Of a DNA stretch of 64,000 nucleotides, positions 32,602 through 55,839 are shown piece by piece. Source of the stretch: Gemmatimonadota bacterium (lineage in GTDB: Bacteria > Gemmatimonadota > Gemmatimonadetes > Palauibacterales > Palauibacteraceae); contig OY762926.1 of assembly GCA_963666735.1 (NCBI GenBank), positions 3,904,001 through 3,968,000 on the forward strand. The letters run 5' to 3'. How positions within the stretch are numbered: the stretch's first letter is position 1; each line of letters begins with the position of its first letter. Under the pieces are notes generated by a model, which was not told the origin of the DNA, searched no databases, and saw only the letters and a list, made by a program, of their open reading frames with translations. The position numbers and the translations under genes are program-made.

Positions 32602-34107
32602 TGTCAAACCGCAATAGAAATGTCCGGGGTTAGAGCGCAGTAGAAATGTCCTCCCCCGGCGGTTCGGTTCTGCCCCGCTCCGGGGCCGGTTCGGGGGAGC
32701 GGGGCGGTTCCTTCTCGTTGGATATCGCTTCTCGCTCGCGGCGGAGGTCTCGGCGCGCGACGGCCTGCTGGACGGAGGCTTGGAAGTGCTTGCGCCACGG
32801 GTGGTCCGGAGCTGGCTTCGGGGGCGCGGGCCTCGGCTTCGCCGGCTTGGCGGGCGCGGGAGGGGCCGGGGCCCGGCGCGCGGGTTCGAGCTCCAGATAG
32901 CGCTCGCCGAGGCGAAAGCGGGTCTGGCCGCCGAGGCGGCGCTCGACGATGATCTCGTCTCCGGGGGCGATGCCGGCGGCCTCGTTCTCCGGGATCTGCC
33001 AGTGGCGGTTCCGGAAGCGGATCGTGAAGTCGCGGGCCACGACGCGGGTCTCCGTCTCGGCGAAGAGCGCCTCGAGGTCCACGCCGTCCGGGAGCGGGCG
33101 GTGCGCGTCGCGGGGGTCGGCGGGCTCGACGGCGAAGCGTTCGTTCCAGAACGGAACCCAGTAGTCCTGCAGGAAGCGGTTGGCCCCCTCCAGCGTGGCG
33201 ATCCCCTCCACCCGCATCTCCCTGACCAGCCGATCCTGCGCGGTGCCGAAGCTCCGCTCGACCCGGCCCTTGGCCTGCGGGGAGCCCGCGAGGATCACCT
33301 CGACCCCCAACTCGCCCAACCCCCGGGCGATGATCGTGTCCGTGCGCTCCTCCTTCTTCGACAGCCACTGCCCGAAGTGTCCGGCGTGGTCGGTGTACAC
33401 CGCCACCGGGCGGCCGTGGCGGCGCAGGTAGCCGATGATCGCCCGCCGGTTCTCCGCCCCGTCGTCGCGCGCCGCGAAGCGGGCCCATCATCAGCCGGCT
33501 CGTCGCGTCGTCGTGGATCGAGATCAGCACCTGTCCTCCCGCCGCCCGCTCCTCCAGCCACGGATGCACCGAGCTGTCCCACTGCCCCAGCTCGCCCAGC
33601 GCCGCCCGCCTCGGACGCCGGCGGCGGTGCTTCGCGCGCTTGCGGCGACGCTCCCACAGCCCGGCCTCCAGCATCCAGCACCGCAGCGTCTCCGCGCTCA
33701 GACGCAGCCCGAAGCGTCTTTCCAGGTGTTCCGCAAGCAGCGTCGGCCCGAAGTCCCGGTACAGCGGATCCCTCGCAACCTCCAGCGCCCGCTCCCGATC
33801 TTCCGCGCGCAGCGCCCGGTTCGACCGCCGTCCCCGCAGGCCGTGTACCGCCGCCGCATCGCCCTCCGCCTCGAACCTCCGGCGCAACCGGCGAAAATGC
33901 CGCCGAGTCACGCCGATCCGCTCCGCTCCCGCAGCGACCGTCAGCACTCCCTCGCTCACCTGTCTCAGCACCGAGATGCGATCCCGCTCCCTCAGACTCA
34001 AGTCCATCCGCTCCTCTCCCGGATCCCGTTCCGCCGTTGACCGAACATGGACCGTAAGAGGACATTTCTACTTGGCTAAGGGGGGACATTTCTACTTTGG
34101 TACGACA
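32602..34107 (-). mobile_element. Insertion sequence, IS1202-family (ISNCY/IS481-related), 1506 bp
   Basis: Ends TGTC...GACA; imperfect terminal IRs, each with two TAGAAATGTCC boxes; flanked by an exact 17-bp direct repeat CCCGGAGGGGTCAGCGG (32585-32601 and 34108-34124). Confidence 0.92.
32630..34007 (-). pseudogene. DDE transposase with a +1 frameshift near 33484
   Basis: HTH and 'DFGPTL', 'QWDSS', 'DDATSR' lie in one frame; 'YTDH' and 'SPQAKGRVER' lie in another. Removing one base from ATGGGCCCGCTTC restores a continuous 'LMM(A/G)RFAARDD'. Confidence 0.85.
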
Positions 34108-37752: not shown

Positions 37753-38361
37753 TCAGTAGCGCCGGATCACTCCGATCACCACGCCCTGGACCGTGACCTG
37801 CGATGGGTGCAGGTATAACGGCGTGAGCGCCGGATTCGCGGGCTGAAGCCGAACCTGCCCGTGCTCCAGGTAGATCTTCTTCATGGTGGCGTTCTCGCCG
37901 TCGACGAGCGCGATCACCATCTCGCCGTTGTGCGCCGTCTCCCGCGACTGGACGATGACGTAGTCTCCGTCGCGGATCTGTTCGTCGATCATCGAGTCGC
38001 CGCGGACCCGCAGCACGTAGTGTTCGCTCAGGGAACCGGAGATCATGTCTTCGGGAACGGAGACCGTCTCCTGCTCCTCGATGACCTCTATGGGCTGGCC
38101 GGCCGCCACGTTGCCGTACAGCCGCAGTTCGACCGCGGCGACCTGGAGTTTTCCTTCCACCAGTTCGACCGACCGGCTTTCATTGTAGTTTTTTCGTATA
38201 TACCCCTTCGCCTGCAGGTTCTCGAGATGTTCGTGGACCGTCGCGAGCGAGCGGTAGCCGAACTCCTCCGCGATCTCCTCGAAGCTCGGGGAATACCCGC
38301 GGAACCGTATGAAGCCCTCGAGGAAGTCCAGCATCTCGCGCTGTCGCTTCGTTAGCGCCAT
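37753..38361 (-). CDS. lexA: SOS transcriptional repressor LexA
   Basis: wHTH 'LTKRQ...PSFEEIA...TVHEHL...KGYI', cleavage site 'VAAG', catalytic 'GDSM' Ser and 'TMKK' Lys. Confidence 0.95.
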   Translation of the reverse strand: MALTKRQREMLDFLEGFIRFRGYSPSFEEIAEEFGYRSLATVHEHLENLQAKGYIRKNYNESRSVELVEGKLQVAAVELRLYGNVAAGQPIEVIEEQETVSVPEDMISGSLSEHYVLRVRGDSMIDEQIRDGDYVIVQSRETAHNGEMVIALVDGENATMKKIYLEHGQVRLQPANPALTPLYLHPSQVTVQGVVIGVIRRY

Positions 38362-38422: not shown

Positions 38423-38459
38423 CCGAATATTGTCCGAAGCTACCCGAATAAGGACCGAA
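38423..38459. promoter_or_regulatory. Candidate LexA operators: two CCGAA-N6-CCGAA direct repeats
   Basis: CCGAATATTGTCCGAA (38423-38438) and CCGAATAAGGACCGAA (38444-38459) in the AT-richer lexA/trpC divergent spacer. Confidence 0.6.
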
Positions 38460-38536: not shown

Positions 38537-39358
38537 ATGACAGCTCACACGATTCTCGAAGAGATCCTCGCGGCGAAGCGGGAGGAGGTCGCGCGACTCC
38601 AGTTGTTCCGGAGCGCGATTCGCGGCCAGGCGGAGGAAGCCGCGCCCCCGCGCGGTTTCGAGGCGTCTCTGCGCCGGCCCGGGGAAGTCTCCGTGGTCGC
38701 GGAGTTCAAGCGCCGCTCTCCGTCCGCCGGCGACATCAACCCCTACGCCCAGGCGGCGGGCGTGGCGAGCGTGTACGCCTCCGCGGGGGCGGCCGCGATC
38801 TCGGTCCTCACGGATGAACGCCATTTCGGCGGCTCGCTGGACGATCTCAGGTCGGCGAAGGACGCGGTGGGGGTTCCCGTCCTCCGCAAGGATTTCACGC
38901 TGGATCCCGTCCAGTTGTACGAGGCGCGGGCCGCGGGCGCGGATGCGGTCCTGCTCATCGTGCGCGCGCTCGGCGACGCCCGGCTGCGGGAACTGCTGGA
39001 ACTCGCGGCCGACATCGGCCTCGCGGCGCTCGTGGAGGCGCACGACGAGGAAGAGATGGAGCGGGCGCTCGAAGCCGGGGCCCGAATCATCGGCGTGAAC
39101 GCGCGCGATCTCGCGTCCTTCAAGGTGGACCTCGAGCGCTCGCTGAGCCTGATCGCGGAGCTTCCGGCCGACGTCGTGGCCGTGGCGGAGAGCGGGATCC
39201 GGTCCGCGGAGGACGCGGCGGCGGCGGGCTCCGCGGGAGCCGACGCGGTTCTGGTCGGCGGCTGGCTGATGGCGGGCGATCCCTCGGCGGGGGTGGAGGC
39301 GCTCGTCGGCCATCCCAAGCGCCCCCGGAGCGCTCCGATGCCCCGGGGCACGCCGTGA
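38537..39358 (+). CDS. trpC: Indole-3-glycerol phosphate synthase
   Basis: 'AEFKRRSPSAG', 'SVLTDERHFGG', 'LRKDF', 'GADAVLLI', 'GVNARDL', 'AESGI'. Confidence 0.95.
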   Translation: MTAHTILEEILAAKREEVARLQLFRSAIRGQAEEAAPPRGFEASLRRPGEVSVVAEFKRRSPSAGDINPYAQAAGVASVYASAGAAAISVLTDERHFGGSLDDLRSAKDAVGVPVLRKDFTLDPVQLYEARAAGADAVLLIVRALGDARLRELLELAADIGLAALVEAHDEEEMERALEAGARIIGVNARDLASFKVDLERSLSLIAELPADVVAVAESGIRSAEDAAAAGSAGADAVLVGGWLMAGDPSAGVEALVGHPKRPRSAPMPRGTP

Positions 39359-39995
39359 ACGAGGTTCGGGTGAAGATCTGCGGCCTCAGGGACCCGCGGC
39401 ACGCCGCCGCGGCTTCCCGCGCGGGCGCCGACTACATCGGCGTGGTGTTCGCGGGCCGCGTGCGGGAGGTCACTGCCGAGGAGGCCGGCGCGGTCGTGGC
39501 CGCCTTCGAGGGCGGCACGCGGGCCGTGGGCGTGTTCCTTGACGCGAGCCCGGCGGAGATCCTCCGGACCCGGGACGCTGCGGGGCTCCACGTCGCCCAG
39601 CTCGCCGGCGCGGAGCCGCCCGAAGTCTGCGATCGCCTGCGGGACGAGGGGTTGGGCGTGTGGAAGGGCCTCCGGCCCACGTCGAGCGCCGCGCTGGTCC
39701 GCGCGTGGGACGAGTACCGCGAGGCGGCGGACGCGATCCTCGTGGAGGGGTTCTCGCCGCGCGGACCCGGAGGTACCGGGACCGCCTTCCCGTACGAGTG
39801 GCTGTCGGAACTCGCGCGGGATGGGTGTGCCCTCGCGCTCGCGGGCGGACTGGAGGCGGCCACCGTGGCGCGCGCGATCCGTGACGCGCGTCCCGACATC
39901 GTCGATGTCTCCTCGGGCGTCGAGCGGGCGCCCGGCGTGAAGTCTCTCGAGCGGGTCCTCGAGTTCCTGGCCGCGGTGCGTCGCGGTCTCCCGGC

Positions 39996-39999
<4 letters not shown>
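39355..39999 (+). CDS. trpF: Phosphoribosylanthranilate isomerase
   Basis: 'VKICG', 'GGTG', 'LAGGL', 'VDVSSGVE'. Confidence 0.93.
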
Positions 40000-41219
<1,220 letters not shown>

Positions 41220-41221
41220 CC

Positions 41222-41767
41222 ATGGCCTTCATCGACTATCCGGATCCGGCGGGAATCCCCGAGGCGGACCGCGTCCCGGACGACGACAACATCATCCGCA
41301 TTCACGGCGTCCACAGTCGCGTCATCCGGCTCCACTACGATCTCTACCGCGAACTCATGTACGGGCCCGGCCCCCTTTCCCGGATTCAGAGGGAGATGAT
41401 CGCGGTCACCGTGTCGGGACTCAACGCCTGCCGTTACTGAATTGTCCATCACGGAGAGGGTCTCCGTCGTCTGCTCGAAGTCGCCGGCGCCGGCCGTTCC
41501 AGCGAGGAGAACGAACGCCTGATCGCCGCCCTCGCGACGGACCATGAGGTGGCCGAGGTGGACGATGCCGACCGGGCGATGCTCGACTATGCCGCGCGAC
41601 TCACGCTCGCGCCCGGCGGCGTGAACGAAGCCGCCGTCGACAGCTTGAAGGCGCACGGTTTCGATGATCGCGCGATCCACGATATCTGCGCGGTCACGGC
41701 CTACTATGCGTTCGCGAACCGGATCGCCGACGGACTCGGCGTCGAACTCGAAGACGAGGGAGGCTGA
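41222..41767 (+). CDS. AhpD-like/CMD-family peroxidase-related enzyme, predicted selenoprotein (Sec73 at TGA 41438-41440)
   Basis: ORFs 41222..41440 and 41549..41767 are in the same frame, separated only by one TGA. Read-through gives 181 aa with 'REMIAVTVSGLNACRY-U-IVHH', the AhpD E..CxxC..H motif, and the family C-terminus 'YYAFANRIADGLGV'. Confidence 0.88.
41451..41467 (+). promoter_or_regulatory. Putative bacterial SECIS element
   Basis: Perfect hairpin ACGGAGA-GGG-TCTCCGT separated from the in-frame TGA by a 10-nt spacer; 17 nt lie between the UGA and the G-rich apical loop. Confidence 0.75.
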
Positions 41768-41778
41768 CGGAATTGGCC

Positions 41779-42462
41779 ATGCTTCCGCCGACACCGCCGC
41801 CGCGCGGACCGGGCGCGCCGGGCGCCTCGACCGTTCCGGCGAATCTCGACCATCTGCTGCTGGGGACCGCCGATCTGGAGGAAGGGGTCGCGTGGGTGGC
41901 CGGCCGGCTCGGCGCCGAAGCCGCGTTCGGCGGGCGTCACGAGAACCTCGGCACCGCGAACTACCTCCTCTCGCTCGGGGGCGACATCTATCTTGAGATC
42001 CTCGGTCCCGACCCTGAAGCGCCTCCCCGGGAAGCCCCGCTCCCGTTCGGGATCGAAGAACTCGACGAGCCCAGGCTCGTCACGTGGGCAGCCCGCGGAA
42101 CGGACCTCGAGGCGCTCGTCGCGCGGGCATCGGGCCGGGGCGTGCCGCTCGGGCCGGTGCGGCCCGGCTCCCGGCTGCGGCCGGACGGCACTGAACTGCG
42201 CTGGGATATCACGGCCTTCGCCGCGTTCCTCCACGACGGTCTCGTACCTTTTTTCATCGATTGGGGAACGACGCCGCACCCGGCCCGCGCCACGCCGGCG
42301 GGGGGGCGGCTGATCTCGTTCCGGGCCGAACACCCGGATCCCCCGGCGGTACGATCCACCCTCGAGGCGCTGGATTTGGCGCTCGAAGTGGACGAGGGGC
42401 CGGAGCCCGCCCTCGTGGCGCGGATTCGCACCCTGGGCGGTGACGAAGTGGCGCTGCGCTAA
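41779..42462 (+). CDS. VOC/glyoxalase-like family protein (Glyoxalase_3 type)
   Basis: 'LDHLL', 'GGRHENLGTAN', 'YLEI', 'GSRLRPDG', 'PFFIDW...HP'. Confidence 0.85.
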   Translation: MLPPTPPPRGPGAPGASTVPANLDHLLLGTADLEEGVAWVAGRLGAEAAFGGRHENLGTANYLLSLGGDIYLEILGPDPEAPPREAPLPFGIEELDEPRLVTWAARGTDLEALVARASGRGVPLGPVRPGSRLRPDGTELRWDITAFAAFLHDGLVPFFIDWGTTPHPARATPAGGRLISFRAEHPDPPAVRSTLEALDLALEVDEGPEPALVARIRTLGGDEVALR

Positions 42463-42521
42463 CAGACATGTCTTCAAGTTTCGAGGCGATATTCATGGGA
42501 TTCACGGGATTCATGCGATTC

Positions 42522-43823
42522 ATGAACGACACAGATTGGGCAGACCAGGCAGATCAGGCATTTCTGGCACATCGGACTCGGCGGGCGACCGGCTTCGCCG
42601 CAGGCCTCCTGACGCTGGCTCTGGTCGTGGCCGGCTGCGTGGACGACCCGACGGACCCCACCGGGCCGCCGCCGGAGGAGGGCGGATCGATCACGCTGGC
42701 GGCGGCCGTCGCCGAGAGTGGGCGGCACGGTCCGGAGGGGATCGAAGTCGCGCGCGGGTATCGTCTCGCCGTCGAGATCCTCAACGAGAACGGCGGGATT
42801 CGCGGCCGGCCGGTGCAACTGGAGATTCGTGACGACGGGAGCGACGCCCAGGCGAGCGCGCGCCTGTACGCCGAACTCATCGCGTCCGGCACCGTCGACG
42901 CCCTGTTGGGACCGTTCAGCAGCCCGATCACGGAAGCCGTCCTCGCCGTCACCGAGGCCGCGGGCGTGCCGATGGTGGCGCCCATGGCGGCGGCGCCCGC
43001 GATCTGGTCCGGGCGGCAGCGGCAATGGAGCGTGCAGTTGCTGACTCCGGGACCGACCTATCTGCGGGGCTCCGTGGAGGTGTCCGTGTTCGGCGGCGCG
43101 CGGACCGTAGCCATCGCGTACGAGGACACATCGTTTCCCGCATCGGTGATCGAGGGCGTGCGCGAAGCGGTCCGGCGTCATGGGCTGGAGGTCGTGCTGG
43201 ACCGATCCTATGATGTCGGAACGGCCGACCACGAGGCGATCGCCGCCGCGGCGCGGGACGCCGGCGCGGACCTCTTCATCGGCGGGGGCTACGTCGCCGA
43301 CGCCGTCGGCTTCGCCACCGCGGCGCCCGCCGTGGGCTACCGGCCGGTTCTCATGAGTCTGCTCGTCGGGCCCGGGCAGCCGCAGTTCGCGCAAGCGGTG
43401 GGTGCGGCCGCGCGGTGCGTCGCCGGCAACGCGCCGTGGCACCCGGCCGTCGGGACGTCCGGGTTCATCGCGGACAACGAGACCTTCGTCCGCCGTTACG
43501 AGGCGGCGCACGGAGAGACGCCGGGCTACCACGCGGCGGGAGGCTTCGCGGCGGTGGAACTCATGGCGGAAGGGTTCGATCAAACGACCCCCGGGGCGGG
43601 CGACCCCGATCGCGCCGCGCTGCGCGACTTCCTGTTCTCGGCCCGGACCGAGACCATCGCGGGTCCGTACGAGGTCGTTCCCATCGGCGACGCGGAGGCC
43701 GGAGCCCAGCGCGGGCTCAAGGGGCTGCAGGTCCAGTGGCAGGACGACGGCGACGGCGGCCTCGCCCTCCGGATCGTTCACCCCTGGGCCGACGCCGACG
43801 CGACCCCCTGCTACATGCGCTGA
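42522..43823 (+). CDS. ABC transporter substrate-binding lipoprotein, branched-chain amino acid (LivJ/K-type) family
   Basis: Lipobox 'VAGC', 'NENGGIRGRPV', 'DDGSD', 'LLGPFSS'. Start uncertain (42468-42522). Confidence 0.82.
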   Translation: MNDTDWADQADQAFLAHRTRRATGFAAGLLTLALVVAGCVDDPTDPTGPPPEEGGSITLAAAVAESGRHGPEGIEVARGYRLAVEILNENGGIRGRPVQLEIRDDGSDAQASARLYAELIASGTVDALLGPFSSPITEAVLAVTEAAGVPMVAPMAAAPAIWSGRQRQWSVQLLTPGPTYLRGSVEVSVFGGARTVAIAYEDTSFPASVIEGVREAVRRHGLEVVLDRSYDVGTADHEAIAAAARDAGADLFIGGGYVADAVGFATAAPAVGYRPVLMSLLVGPGQPQFAQAVGAAARCVAGNAPWHPAVGTSGFIADNETFVRRYEAAHGETPGYHAAGGFAAVELMAEGFDQTTPGAGDPDRAALRDFLFSARTETIAGPYEVVPIGDAEAGAQRGLKGLQVQWQDDGDGGLALRIVHPWADADATPCYMR

Positions 43824-43896
43824 CTACATGCGCTGATCGGGCCCGGTCGCGTCCGGTAGTACCTGGACGCGACCAAACCCGTCGCTTCTACGCCCG

Positions 43897-46800
43897 CTAC
43901 CTCCCGCGGATCCCGGCGGCGGCGCCGGCGGCGTTCTCCTCCGCCGGCCGCTCCCTCTCGAGCGGTCGCGCCTCGGGGTAGATCTCGTCGAGCGTCATCC
44001 CGTCATACAGCCGTCCGTCCTTCATCACATAGTGGATGTCGACGGTGCTGCGCAGTTCGTCGAGCGGGTTCGAGTTGAGGATGACGATGTCGGCGAATTT
44101 CCCCTCCTCGATGCTTCCGAGCTCATCCCCGAACCCGATCGCCTCGGCGCCGAGGATCGTCGCGGCCCTCAGCATGTCGAAGTTCGACGCGCCGCCGGCC
44201 GCCATCGCCCACAACTCCCAGTGGTAGCCGACGCCCTGGATCTGCCCGTGGCTCCCCACGGCCATGCGGGCGTCCGCCTCGAGCATCTTCTTCACGAACT
44301 CGCCGTGACGCGGGAAGACATACTCTTCCTCCAGGAACCAGCCGCCTTCTCCGGGACTCCCCCCGGCGCCGGGCCCGCGCCGCCGCGCCCGCGCGTCGAT
44401 GTTCGCCTTGGGCACGAACGTCGCGAGCTTCTCGTCCCCGAGCACGTCCTCGTGCGTGTAGAAGTAGTTCTCGCCGAACGGGCCGCCGTACGAGACGAGC
44501 AGGGTCGGGCTGTTCGTCGTCTCCGACGTCTTGAACAGTTCGACCACGTCCGAGTAGATGGGCGCGATCGGGAGGTTGTGCTCGATGCCGGGGTATCCGT
44601 CGATCGCATGCGTGATGTCGATCTTGTAGTCGAGCCCGCCCTCCGTCGTGGGCATGAGTTCGAGGTCGCGCGCCGCCTGGATGATCCACTGACGCTGCTG
44701 GCGGTTGCCCGTCATGTACATCTTGAGCGTCTTCGTGTCGAAGTACTCCGCGTAGCGCCGCAGGATGGTCTTCGCGTGGTCCGCGTCGCGGAGGTTCTCG
44801 CCCGCGAACACGCCGGGTCCCGTCGAATAGATGCGCGGCCCGGTCATGCCGCCGGTCCGCACCCGGTCCGTGTAGCTGAGGATGTCGGTCGTCGCGGTCT
44901 GCGGATCGCGCGTCGTGGTGACGCCGTAGGAGAGCGTCGCGAGGTACTGCCACACCTCCTCCGGATGAACCTCCGGCACGAGCCACTGCGCGTGATAGTG
45001 GGTGTCGATGAAGCCGGGGACGAGCGTCTTTCCGCTCACGTCGATGACGGTGGCGCTGTCCGGGACCTCGACCGAGTCGGCGGGGCCCACGGCGACGATG
45101 CGGTTGTCCGTCACGAGTACCACGCCGTCCTCGATGATGCGCGGTTTCATGGCGGGTTCCGGCGGCTCCGCGGGGGTGTCCTCCTCCTCCGCGGCTTCGG
45201 CCGCGCCCTCCGCGCCCTCCGCAGCTTCGGCCGGCGTCTCCGCCGGATCGTCCGGGGCCGCCCCCGCCGTGTCCGCCGGCGCCCCCGCCGTATCCGCCGG
45301 CGTGTCCTCCGGGACCTCGGTCATGGTGATGATCCGCCCGCCGGTGAGCGCCACCGTGCCGCGCGGGATGTCCCGGGGCAGCTGCGCCTCGATCCGGCGC
45401 TCGTGCGCCTCGTACGTCTCCGTCGTGTCGGCGAGGACCTCCTCGTCGCCCGCCCGCACCGCGGCCGATTTCGCGGCCACCTCCTCCGCCGCCTGTCGGA
45501 TCGAGTCGGCGCGGGCCAGCAACGAGTCCGCCTCGACTTGCACGGAGTCGGCCTGGAGTCGGGTGATCTCGTCCTCCAGCTCCTCCGGTACCTCCTCGTC
45601 GGCGTTCTCGAGGCTGTCCGCCTCGGCGCGCTTCTCCTTGAGGGTGTCGGTGACCGCCGCCGCCCTGACGCGCAGGAGGGCGCGCGCGTGGGCGGTGGCT
45701 TCCTCCTCCTCTTCCTCCGCCTCGACGCGGTCCAGGTCGTACGTGAACAGCACGTTCCCCAGGGCCCAGTGCAGGGCGCCGCCGTCGGGCGCCCACGAGG
45801 CGAACTCACCGCCCACGTCCGTGACCTTGCGCACCGGCACCGGGGCGTCGTCCACCCGGAACAGCGTGATCGTCGGCGGGGTGTCGCCGACTTCGGCCAG
45901 GTCCGCCACGAAGAGGTCCCGTCCGAACTGCACGAAGGCGCGGTCGCCCGCCGGCGACAGCACGATCAGGCCGGCCGGCTGCGGTCCGCCCGGCTCCGCC
46001 GGCGGGTCCGGGTCCGTGGGGTCGGGGCCCTGCCGCCAGGGGAAGACGCGTCGCGGCAGGAACTCCCACTCGTTCGGGTGCGGGTCGCCGATGCCGGCGA
46101 TGCCCTGCCGCCCGCGCACGATCAGATGGCGCTTCACGTCCGTCCCGTCCCAGCGGAAGGACACCAGCCCCTCGACCGGGCTGTACGCGTAGATCCGGTC
46201 CGGATCGTCCGCCGCGAAATGGGGCACGTCGCGGAGTCCCGTGGGTGAGATGACCTCCGCCTCCGCCGGCTCGGTTCCCGCCGTCGGCACCCACACGAAC
46301 TCGCCGCCGATGGGGCCGAAGAAGGCTCCGGCCGCTTCCTTGAGCTGCCGGGCGGCGCCTCGCGAGGCGACGATCCGCTCGCCGTCGGGGGACCAGGCGA
46401 CGTTGTAATAGAGGGCCGCCGTGGCCGAGAGCCGGATCGGTTCGCCGCCTTCCACCGCGACCTTCATGATGTGGCCGCCGTCCGAGTCGTCCCAGGTCGT
46501 GTAGGCGATCCAGCGGCCGTCCGGCGACCACTGGGGATGGAACTCGCCCGCGTCGCCCTCGGTGAGACGCCGCGGCTCGCCGTCGGGCAGATCGCGGATC
46601 CAGAGGCGGTCGAAGGCCGTGAACACCAACTGGCCGCCGCCCGGGCCGACGACCGGACTCCGGATCTGGCTCGCCGTGACCATTGCCGTGGTGTCGATCT
46701 GGTACTCGAACTTCACCTGCGGGCCGACGTCGAGTTCGACCTCCGCCTCGAACGGGATCTCCGTCGCCTCGCCCCCGTCCATGGGGACGTTCCAGATCTT

Positions 46801-54997: not shown

Positions 54998-55839
54998 GCG
55001 TTCCCGGAGGCACGGCGCCCGCCGCGGCCCCCGTCGCGGGCGCCGGATCGCGGATCGGGGGCGCGTTCGAGGGTCGTGAAGGGGGGGCGGCGTTCATCCC
55101 CTTTCTGTCGAGCGGGTTTCCGAGACCGGCGGACACCCCGCGGCTGCTCGAGCGGCTGGCGGGGGATGGCGCCGACATCATCGAACTCGGGATCCCGTTC
55201 AGCGACCCGCTCGCGGACGGGCCGACGATCCAGGCCGCGAGCTGGCGCGCGCTGGAGCAGGGCGTGACGGTCGAATCCACCCTGGAGCAGTTGGCCGGGA
55301 TATCGGCCGACCTGCCGCCCGTCGTCGTCTTCTCCTACCTGAATCCGATCCTCCGCATGGGAGTGGAACGTTTCCTGGCGCGGGCGGAGGCCGCGGGGGC
55401 GGCGGGACTCCTCGTCACCGACCTTCCCGTGGGTTCGCATCCGGAGCTGGAGCGGCGGTTGGCCGCCGGTCCGCTCGACCTCATCCCCCTCGCGGCCCCC
55501 ACCACGCCGCGCGACCGCCTCGAGACCATCCTCGGCCACGCCTCGGGGTTCCTCTACTACATCTCCCGCCTCGGCGTGACGGGCGCGCGGAAGGCGCTGA
55601 ACGCCGCGCTCGACGACCAGGTGAAACGGCTGCGCAAGACGGTGCGCCTGCCGGTGGCCGTGGGGTTCGGGATCTCCACCCCGGAGCAGGCGGCGGCGGT
55701 CGCGGGCATGGCGGACGGCGTCGTCGTGGGGTCCGCGCTCATCGCGGCGCTGGGCCGCGGCGAGGCCGCGTTCGGAGAGCTGTCCGCCGCGCTCGCCGCG
55801 GCCGTCCACCGCGACATCTTGAACGGAGCAGCCCGATGA
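54994..55839 (+). CDS. trpA: Tryptophan synthase alpha chain
   Basis: 'IELGIPFSDPLADGPTIQ', 'YLNP', 'APTT', 'GVTG', 'VGFGI', 'ADGVVVGSA'. Start (TTG 54994, overlapping the upstream stop) is approximate. Confidence 0.95.
   Translation: MSVPGGTAPAAAPVAGAGSRIGGAFEGREGGAAFIPFLSSGFPRPADTPRLLERLAGDGADIIELGIPFSDPLADGPTIQAASWRALEQGVTVESTLEQLAGISADLPPVVVFSYLNPILRMGVERFLARAEAAGAAGLLVTDLPVGSHPELERRLAAGPLDLIPLAAPTTPRDRLETILGHASGFLYYISRLGVTGARKALNAALDDQVKRLRKTVRLPVAVGFGISTPEQAAAVAGMADGVVVGSALIAALGRGEAAFGELSAALAAAVHRDILNGAAR

Follow-up and report, generated by a model that had tools for sequence, protein, structure and literature searches.

The locus and its interrupted frame

The window, i.e. the whole 64,000-nucleotide stretch analysed, carries a plus-strand run in which trpC, trpF and trpB are followed at once by a small AhpD-like gene, a glyoxalase-like gene and a gene for a periplasmic binding protein (Table 1). 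Standard ORF calling splits the AhpD-like gene into two 72-aa pieces, 41222-41440 and 41549-41767. Translation of 41222-41767 with TGA read as U gives a single product of 181 aa, in which U73 is the sole internal stop and the terminal codon is again TGA, so that the two short ORFs were rightly taken by the first-pass annotation as one frame broken by a single TGA. The residue lies in the context NACRY-U-IVHHG and completes the motif E58-x11-C70-x2-U73-x3-H77. In fact, an alignment of homologs pairs Cys with U73, which agrees with the earlier placement of the TGA at the second Cys of E-x11-C-x2-C-x3-H.

Table 1. Features of the selenoprotein locus and its surroundings (window positions)
Feature	Position	Strand	Basis or remark
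lexA, divergent from trpC, between trpD and trpC	37753..38361	-	conserved in genus
Four CCGAA direct repeats, period 10-11, candidate LexA operator	38423..38459	+	lexA/trpC spacer
trpC	38545..39358	+	start inferred from alignment of relatives
trpF	39355..39999	+	profile match
trpB	39996..41219	+	ends 2 nt before selenoprotein ATG
AhpD-like (TIGR01926 / PF02627) selenoprotein CDS, 181 aa, Sec73	41222..41767	+	profile 117.2 bits vs cut-off 81.8
Codons of catalytic helix pair E58, C70, Y72, U73, H77	41393..41452	+	= Mtb AhpD E118, C130, H132, C133, H137
In-frame TGA, almost certainly read as selenocysteine, second position of CxxU	41438..41440	+	conservation; identical contigs X1, X14
Bacterial SECIS hairpin, 7-bp stem, 3-nt GGG loop (41458-41460), overlaps codons H77-R82	41451..41467	+	model fit, conservation, covariation
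Glyoxalase-like (VOC, PF13468) gene	41773..42462	+	5 nt downstream of selenoprotein gene
Periplasmic binding protein gene (PF13458)	42468..43823	+	last gene of tightly packed + strand run
trpA	55078..55839	+	Pfam match start to stop; 13.3 kb downstream; only trpA match in genome

In profile searches the read-through product passes the cut-offs of TIGR01926, TIGR00778 and PF02627, while the N-terminal 72-aa piece by itself stays under the Pfam cut-off and the C-terminal 72-aa piece gave no match. The closest named records, at 77-92% identity, are mostly from Candidatus Palauibacter, Gemmatimonadota, and sponge metagenomes are among the runs holding the sequence. Public records of relatives present only the 72-aa N-terminal piece under the name "hypothetical protein", which is the mis-calling that had been foreseen and which the read-through frame corrects. 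The TGA in the small redox-enzyme gene of this sponge-associated bacterium is almost certainly a selenocysteine codon, and the gene is hence cut short by gene callers.

Conservation of the TGA

A homolog match was found in 55 of 61 related genomes. An ortholog occurs in 35 of the 37 family genomes, and every one of the 35 keeps TGA at residue 73, as the proposed comparison with related genomes would have it; over the whole set of relatives TGA was found at 69 of 70 loci. Among 41 metagenome loci fetched, 37 have TGA, two have TGC and two end before the codon, so that 37 of the 39 reaching the codon carry TGA. The phylum was sampled with 201 genomes; a match was obtained in 82, and in 78 of them it contains a TGA, whose position was verified only at the fetched loci. 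Acidobacteriota, Calditrichota, Myxococcota, Chloroflexota and others likewise have homologs of the TGA form, with intact flanking frames around the same TGA across several phyla, and the Pseudomonadota homologs are of the Cys type.

Since an internal stop in one assembly is also what a pseudogene or a sequencing error would leave, the codon was compared in contigs from runs of two different studies, X1 (40682-44097) and X14 (41061-41780), which show 0 differences across the TGA and therefore speak against a sequencing error. Together with the 35 TGA-bearing orthologs and the same TGA between intact frames in several phyla, this refutes the pseudogene or error reading, whose probability is vanishingly small.

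Presence of the TGA follows the selenocysteine machinery. Among the 78 TGA-bearing genomes of the phylum sample, selA is present in 76, and tRNA-Sec and SelB were found in the remaining pair, G234 and the unpublished G231, giving machinery in 78/78, or 77/77 without G231. In G155 no selA, selB or tRNA-Sec match was found and the site is TGC; a further genome with a match, G148, is selA-negative, but its match stops short of the Sec site. Over the phylum sample selA was found in 162 of 201 genomes (a tally that includes the unpublished G208 and G112), and selenocysteine use is thus common in Gemmatimonadota. No report on selenocysteine in this phylum was found in the literature covered, to which most subscription journals do not belong, and the term "seleno" is absent, by term search, from the available part of the Palauibacterales description (PMC10469786).

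The same distribution bears on another reading, in which the TGA does terminate translation and the gene naturally yields two polypeptides. This would suit the 72-aa N-terminal piece of the public calls and the almost universal TGA of the subfamily. However, a restart is not conserved, since among 178 loci the TGA is followed by ATG in 5, by GTG in 16 and by another codon in 157. Moreover, the next in-frame start (41549) comes only after the invariant H77, which would be left untranslated; for these two reasons a split gene is unlikely. Furthermore, only genomes with Sec machinery have the TGA, with TGC where the machinery was not found, and a conserved SECIS would serve no purpose in a split gene. 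Its probability is accordingly set very low, and decoding as selenocysteine is preferred.

G141 likewise gave no match for selA, selB or tRNA-Sec and carries TGC (L127:1168-1212), yet the six outer hairpin pairs are intact. It groups with two Sec proteins (support 99) in a quick version of the tree, which gave long-branch warnings and was built without 35 of the 196 rows, these being near-identical Cys proteins. Because of this grouping and of the retained hairpin pairs, G141 is likely a recent Sec-to-Cys change with a relic SECIS, and so offers such a switch together with its remnant hairpin.

The SECIS hairpin

The hairpin begins 10 nt past the TGA, and its loop lies 17 nt past it. In the available text of PMC13188914, the bSECIS model has a loop of 3-9 nt with a G in its first two positions, a stem of 4-16 bp, a distance of 16-37 nt from the UGA and an MFE of at most -7.5 kcal/mol; the present hairpin, with its 3-nt GGG loop, 7 bp, 17 nt and -9.3 to -9.9 kcal/mol, falls within it. 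Compared with shuffles over four folding windows, the MFE was not significant (z 0.86, 0.13, 1.48 and -0.46) and is ordinary for DNA as GC-rich as this. Of the genome's 4826 in-frame Cys codons, 30 are followed by a hairpin satisfying a strict rule, as are 14 of its 1090 terminal TGAs; the rule was set after the present hairpin had been seen, and four of five TGA genes found by homology alone also satisfy it. No such hairpin follows the selenoprotein gene's own terminal TGA.

Constraint on the nucleotides themselves is seen at synonymous sites. The rare codons GGT80 and CGT82 (7% and 6% usage), as well as CTC81, are fixed in 35/35 orthologs, as against only 1 of 59 comparable sites elsewhere, and the G78 codon is only GGA or GGG across the 35, both being pair-preserving forms. 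In a 39-sequence alignment 98.5% of cells pair and two pairs are altered on both sides. The stem of 48 more diverse sequences pairs in 90.8% of cells, with 13 cells altered on both sides, compared with 35-52% in slid controls, so that the covariation looked for in related genomes was found in both alignments. The covariation score was reached by 0 of 500 shuffles in either alignment, counts that are not probabilities because the kin are not independent. The innermost pair is broken in 23 of the 48 diverse sequences, and the conserved core is therefore a stem of 5-6 bp with a 5-nt loop.

Comparison of Sec-type and Cys-type homologs points the same way. Of 92 distinct contexts with TGA, 73 keep all six outer stem pairs, versus one of 39 Cys contexts, the one being G141; the count leaves out L182, with neither Cys nor TGA at the site, and its Cys contexts are dominated by one proteobacterial group. 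A better control is given by the Cys homologs L259 and L262, which have the same HHGAGL peptide and pair at only 3 of the 6 positions. The hairpin is thus under selection beyond the protein sequence, and the decisive evidence is conservation and covariation, not folding energy. The first-pass annotation had called it a SECIS element from its position ten nt downstream of the TGA, and the fit to the bSECIS model, the frozen synonymous sites and the covarying stem all sustain that call.

In a subgroup of distant homologs the hairpin stands in another register. Two distant homologs, L085 and L086, have GAP-U in place of CxxU, without the first Cys, and a shifted hairpin. The Chloroflexota homolog L182, near 3989, retains the hairpin while the frame upstream of it is broken.

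Selenocysteine machinery in the genome

Profile and tRNA searches showed that the single-contig genome encodes selA, selB, selD and tRNA-Sec(UCA), in agreement with the earlier proposal that the organism uses selenocysteine. The tRNA-Sec scores 79.7 bits against Rfam and is the sole UCA-anticodon tRNA among the 51 found. The selD gene itself carries an in-frame TGA and a hairpin.

Reading of UGA as Cys or Trp through a general suppressor or a reassigned code, which the Cys at the homologous position might suggest, is opposed by the only tRNA with the UCA anticodon being called as tRNA-Sec. TGA also ends 1090 long ORFs in the genome, trpB and the selenoprotein gene included, and the hairpin follows the internal TGA while being absent after the terminal one. 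This reading is extremely improbable, still more so than a split gene, and selenocysteine decoding of the TGA at 41438-41440 is regarded as very close to certain.

The genome has at least nine in-frame-TGA candidates. A second TIGR01926 paralog (L070:4219; genome position 484818) carries its TGA at the corresponding site with an almost identical hairpin, lies downstream of a proline racemase-family gene and is widespread in the family. Others encode SelD, three AhpC/TSA-family proteins, FdhA and two OsmC-like proteins (genome positions 538007, 2342702, 2509707, 2845741, 2723743, 1222810 and 2753753), mostly with a stem of 7-9 bp and a 3-nt loop starting with G. The first genome-wide TGA screen was too strict, giving 7 hits of 89 and missing both selD and the TIGR01926 paralog, and its hits are circular as SECIS controls.

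Family, fold and proposed mechanism

The family is not new, as had been stated at the outset. A TIGR01926/CxxU "AhpD-like protein" selenoprotein family is listed in Table 1 of a 2026 review (PMC13188914), the GOS survey counted 299 Sec sequences of "AhpD-like 1", COG2128 (PMC2398784), the SECIS of the AhpD-like family is drawn in PMC1088965, and the family has its own BSepDB page and serves as the example of that database (PMC13326102), all according to the available parts of these sources. Since it is above the cut-off of the same HMM and has the same CxxU with one Sec, and no structural difference was found, the gene is a well-supported further member of this catalogued selenoprotein family. 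Gemmatimonadota is not named in the available texts of PMC13188914 and PMC13326102, whose supplements and BSepDB tables may hold such members.

The predicted structure is all-helical with a pLDDT of 87.8. Structure comparison of the model gave full-length matches of Z 21.7-22.7 to five TIGR01926-type structures (2PFX, 3C1L, 2PRR, 6K40 and 2OYO), followed by S. pneumoniae AhpD (Z 18.8), the debrominase Bmp8 (Z 17.5) and Mtb AhpD (Z 11.8). The five are Cys-type proteins with the fold over the full length (rmsd 1.9-2.0 A, 30-34% identity) and a Cys opposite U73. The Sec subfamily is set apart from them by an additional His76, which is invariant, and by a short helical insert behind residue 85. 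These closest solved relatives carry titles such as "uncharacterised" or "putative".

Residues E58, C70, Y72, U73 and H77 are invariant in alignment A3, and profile positions 52-91 align with residues 112-151 of Mtb AhpD (1gu9), a peroxiredoxin reductase. The proton relay of that enzyme is described as E118/C130/H132/C133/H137 (PMC3141380, available text), and its Cys133 forms the cross-link to AhpC. Its E118, C130, C133 and H137 correspond to E58, C70, U73 and H77 here, so that the E-x11-C-x2-C-x3-H pattern is kept with Sec replacing the second Cys. The two proteins differ in having 10% identity, in the Tyr here at the His132 position and in the absence of an ahpC neighbour. TIGR00777, AhpD proper, gives 14.2 bits, below its cut-off of 191.95, and the protein is not a member; by analogy it may work like AhpD without belonging to TIGR00777. 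CxxU and the CMD/AhpD fold are also shared with two other families, which are matched only weakly and at scores well under their cut-offs, the alkylhydroperoxidase-related (seleno)protein NF041238 (CFYUT; 46 versus 175), which is twice as long, and the YciW-related (seleno)protein NF053654 (18.2 versus 310).

In the proposed mechanism, SelB-GTP-Sec-tRNA(UCA) would bind the GGG-loop hairpin 17 nt downstream and decode the UGA, a step modelled on established bacterial selenocysteine biology, for which the parts and their conservation are in place. The E58/H77 relay would then activate Sec73, the counterpart of Mtb AhpD Cys133, which is exposed and attacks the substrate disulfide; the residues map onto the Mtb enzyme, and the relay chemistry is presumed by analogy. 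The Sec73 selenolate would reduce an oxidised partner, Cys70 would resolve the mixed bond as a selenenylsulfide, and a cellular dithiol would re-reduce the enzyme. The partner would most likely be either the disulfide form of a peroxiredoxin or some small oxidant or electrophile, and 12 AhpC/TSA-family matches in the genome are possible partners.

The earlier name "Sec73 peroxidase" therefore stands for its Sec73 read-through, while "peroxidase" goes beyond the evidence; a role as thiol/selenol disulfide reductase appears just as likely. H2O2 reduction by PA0269 is weak (PMC3141380, available text) and the first Cys of B. thailandensis AhpD is more important than the second (PMC6626918, available text). 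A general role in redox defence, with no function in tryptophan metabolism, is considered probable. In the texts covered the family is only predicted, and an activity assay of any member would be a real advance.

The trp neighbourhood

The gene was confirmed to start 2 nt after the trpB stop. In all 35 family genomes with the ortholog it lies after trpB on the same strand within 3 kb, and in 30 of them within 100 nt. It precedes trpA in 30/30 family genomes with both on one contig, at 0.07-49 kb, and in one genus the order trpB-gene-trpA is kept with gaps under 80 nt. From trpB through to the binding-protein gene, neighbouring genes are 2-5 nt apart, which speaks for co-transcription, and on this gene spacing the selenoprotein gene is likely co-transcribed with trpCFB. 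The sigma-70 promoter scan gave 0 sites, and terminator-like hits equalled the shuffle mean. The contigs of the RNA run X20 all come from related strains (0.07 of words). Thus, of the former view of a gene attached to trpCFB and the VOC gene, the adjacency holds and co-expression is likely, but the gene is not just attached, since it lies inside the trpB...trpA interval.

This linkage invites a reading in which the Sec enzyme is tied to tryptophan or to halogenated aromatics, for example as a Bmp8-like dehalogenase acting on sponge bromo-indoles or bromo-pyrroles and kept for that reason in the trp operon. Deiodinases are a precedent for Sec-based reductive dehalogenation. The constant position between trpB and trpA in the family agrees with such a role, as does the presence of sponge metagenomes among the runs with the sequence, and the link to trpB in 35/35 orthologs is compatible with selection on the linkage. 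Bmp8, described as dehalogenating (PMC7918430, available text), shares the fold and a profile match (E 1.8e-5). However, it is only 18-19% identical and ranks under five uncharacterised relatives, and no halogenase cluster lies near the selenoprotein gene.

The genomic distribution also counts against a tryptophan-linked dehalogenase. No trp neighbours accompany the close orthologs (55-70% identity) that occur in Acidobacteriota, Calditrichota, Myxococcota and further families of Gemmatimonadota. No trp genes were seen beside any homolog outside the family, many of the flanks covering only 1-1.5 kb, and the annotated neighbours in 22 loci have no common theme. In G019 and G025 trpB and trpA are kept and no ortholog was found. 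Other genes lie between trpB and trpA too, namely those for DinB, VOC, amidohydrolase, peptidase and arginase proteins in this family and, in part of the sister family, HEAT and HD-GYP-type genes. Because the interval collects unrelated insertions, a link to tryptophan is unsupported and co-expression is still likely. The trp-linked copies are compatible with one origin in the quick tree, and the simplest reading is a single old insertion behind trpB in the family ancestor, using the operon transcript.

The dehalogenase reading is consequently held to be quite unlikely. Less likely again is its fuller form, in which a sponge-symbiotic Palauibacter recruited the Sec73 enzyme into its trp operon, where, in the manner of a deiodinase or Bmp8, it would strip halogens from host bromo-indoles or similar aromatics and be co-transcribed from a spacer with an unreported direct-repeat LexA operator. 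The preferred reading, judged probable, is one 181-aa all-helical AhpD-like oxidoreductase with Sec73, whose gene shares the trpCFB transcript but which takes no part in tryptophan synthesis. A trp-operon link for such genes was not found reported in the literature covered, most subscription journals lying outside it.

In part of the sister family (L214-L216), HEAT-repeat-like and HD-GYP-type genes fill a 3.3-kb trpB-trpA gap. In the sister genus (L153, L158) trpB-gene-trpA is preceded by a protein of 851 aa that contains two stretches of tyrosine phenol-lyase/tryptophanase type. A chorismate-binding gene upstream of a Krumholzibacteriota homolog was considered as a second trp link and rejected, for it passes the pabB cut-off and not that of trpE.

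The lexA/trpC spacer and other observations

The spacer between the divergent lexA and trpC is 183 bp long, and its CCGAA repeats are kept throughout the 23 spacers aligned, save for a single variant copy in one spacer. They look like a candidate direct-repeat SOS box, or LexA operator, of this lineage; they may control lexA alone or trpC as well. No Gemmatimonadota LexA motif was found reported in the literature, the coverage of which excluded most subscription journals.

Plain CCGAA-N6-CCGAA, counted 20 times in the genome, shows no enrichment relative to the pair at other spacings (range 13-55), and only the AT-rich, intergenic subset is suggestive. CCGAA-N6-CCGAA with an AT-rich spacer precedes two DUF222-HNH, DUF5131, radical SAM, DinB and DprA genes (L268, L269, L271-L274), and a CCGAA pair with one mismatch precedes recA (L267:1358-1373).

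Elsewhere in the window, the minus-strand ORF at 32604-34007 has a transposase-like start and drifts into low-complexity sequence, and is presumably frameshifted.
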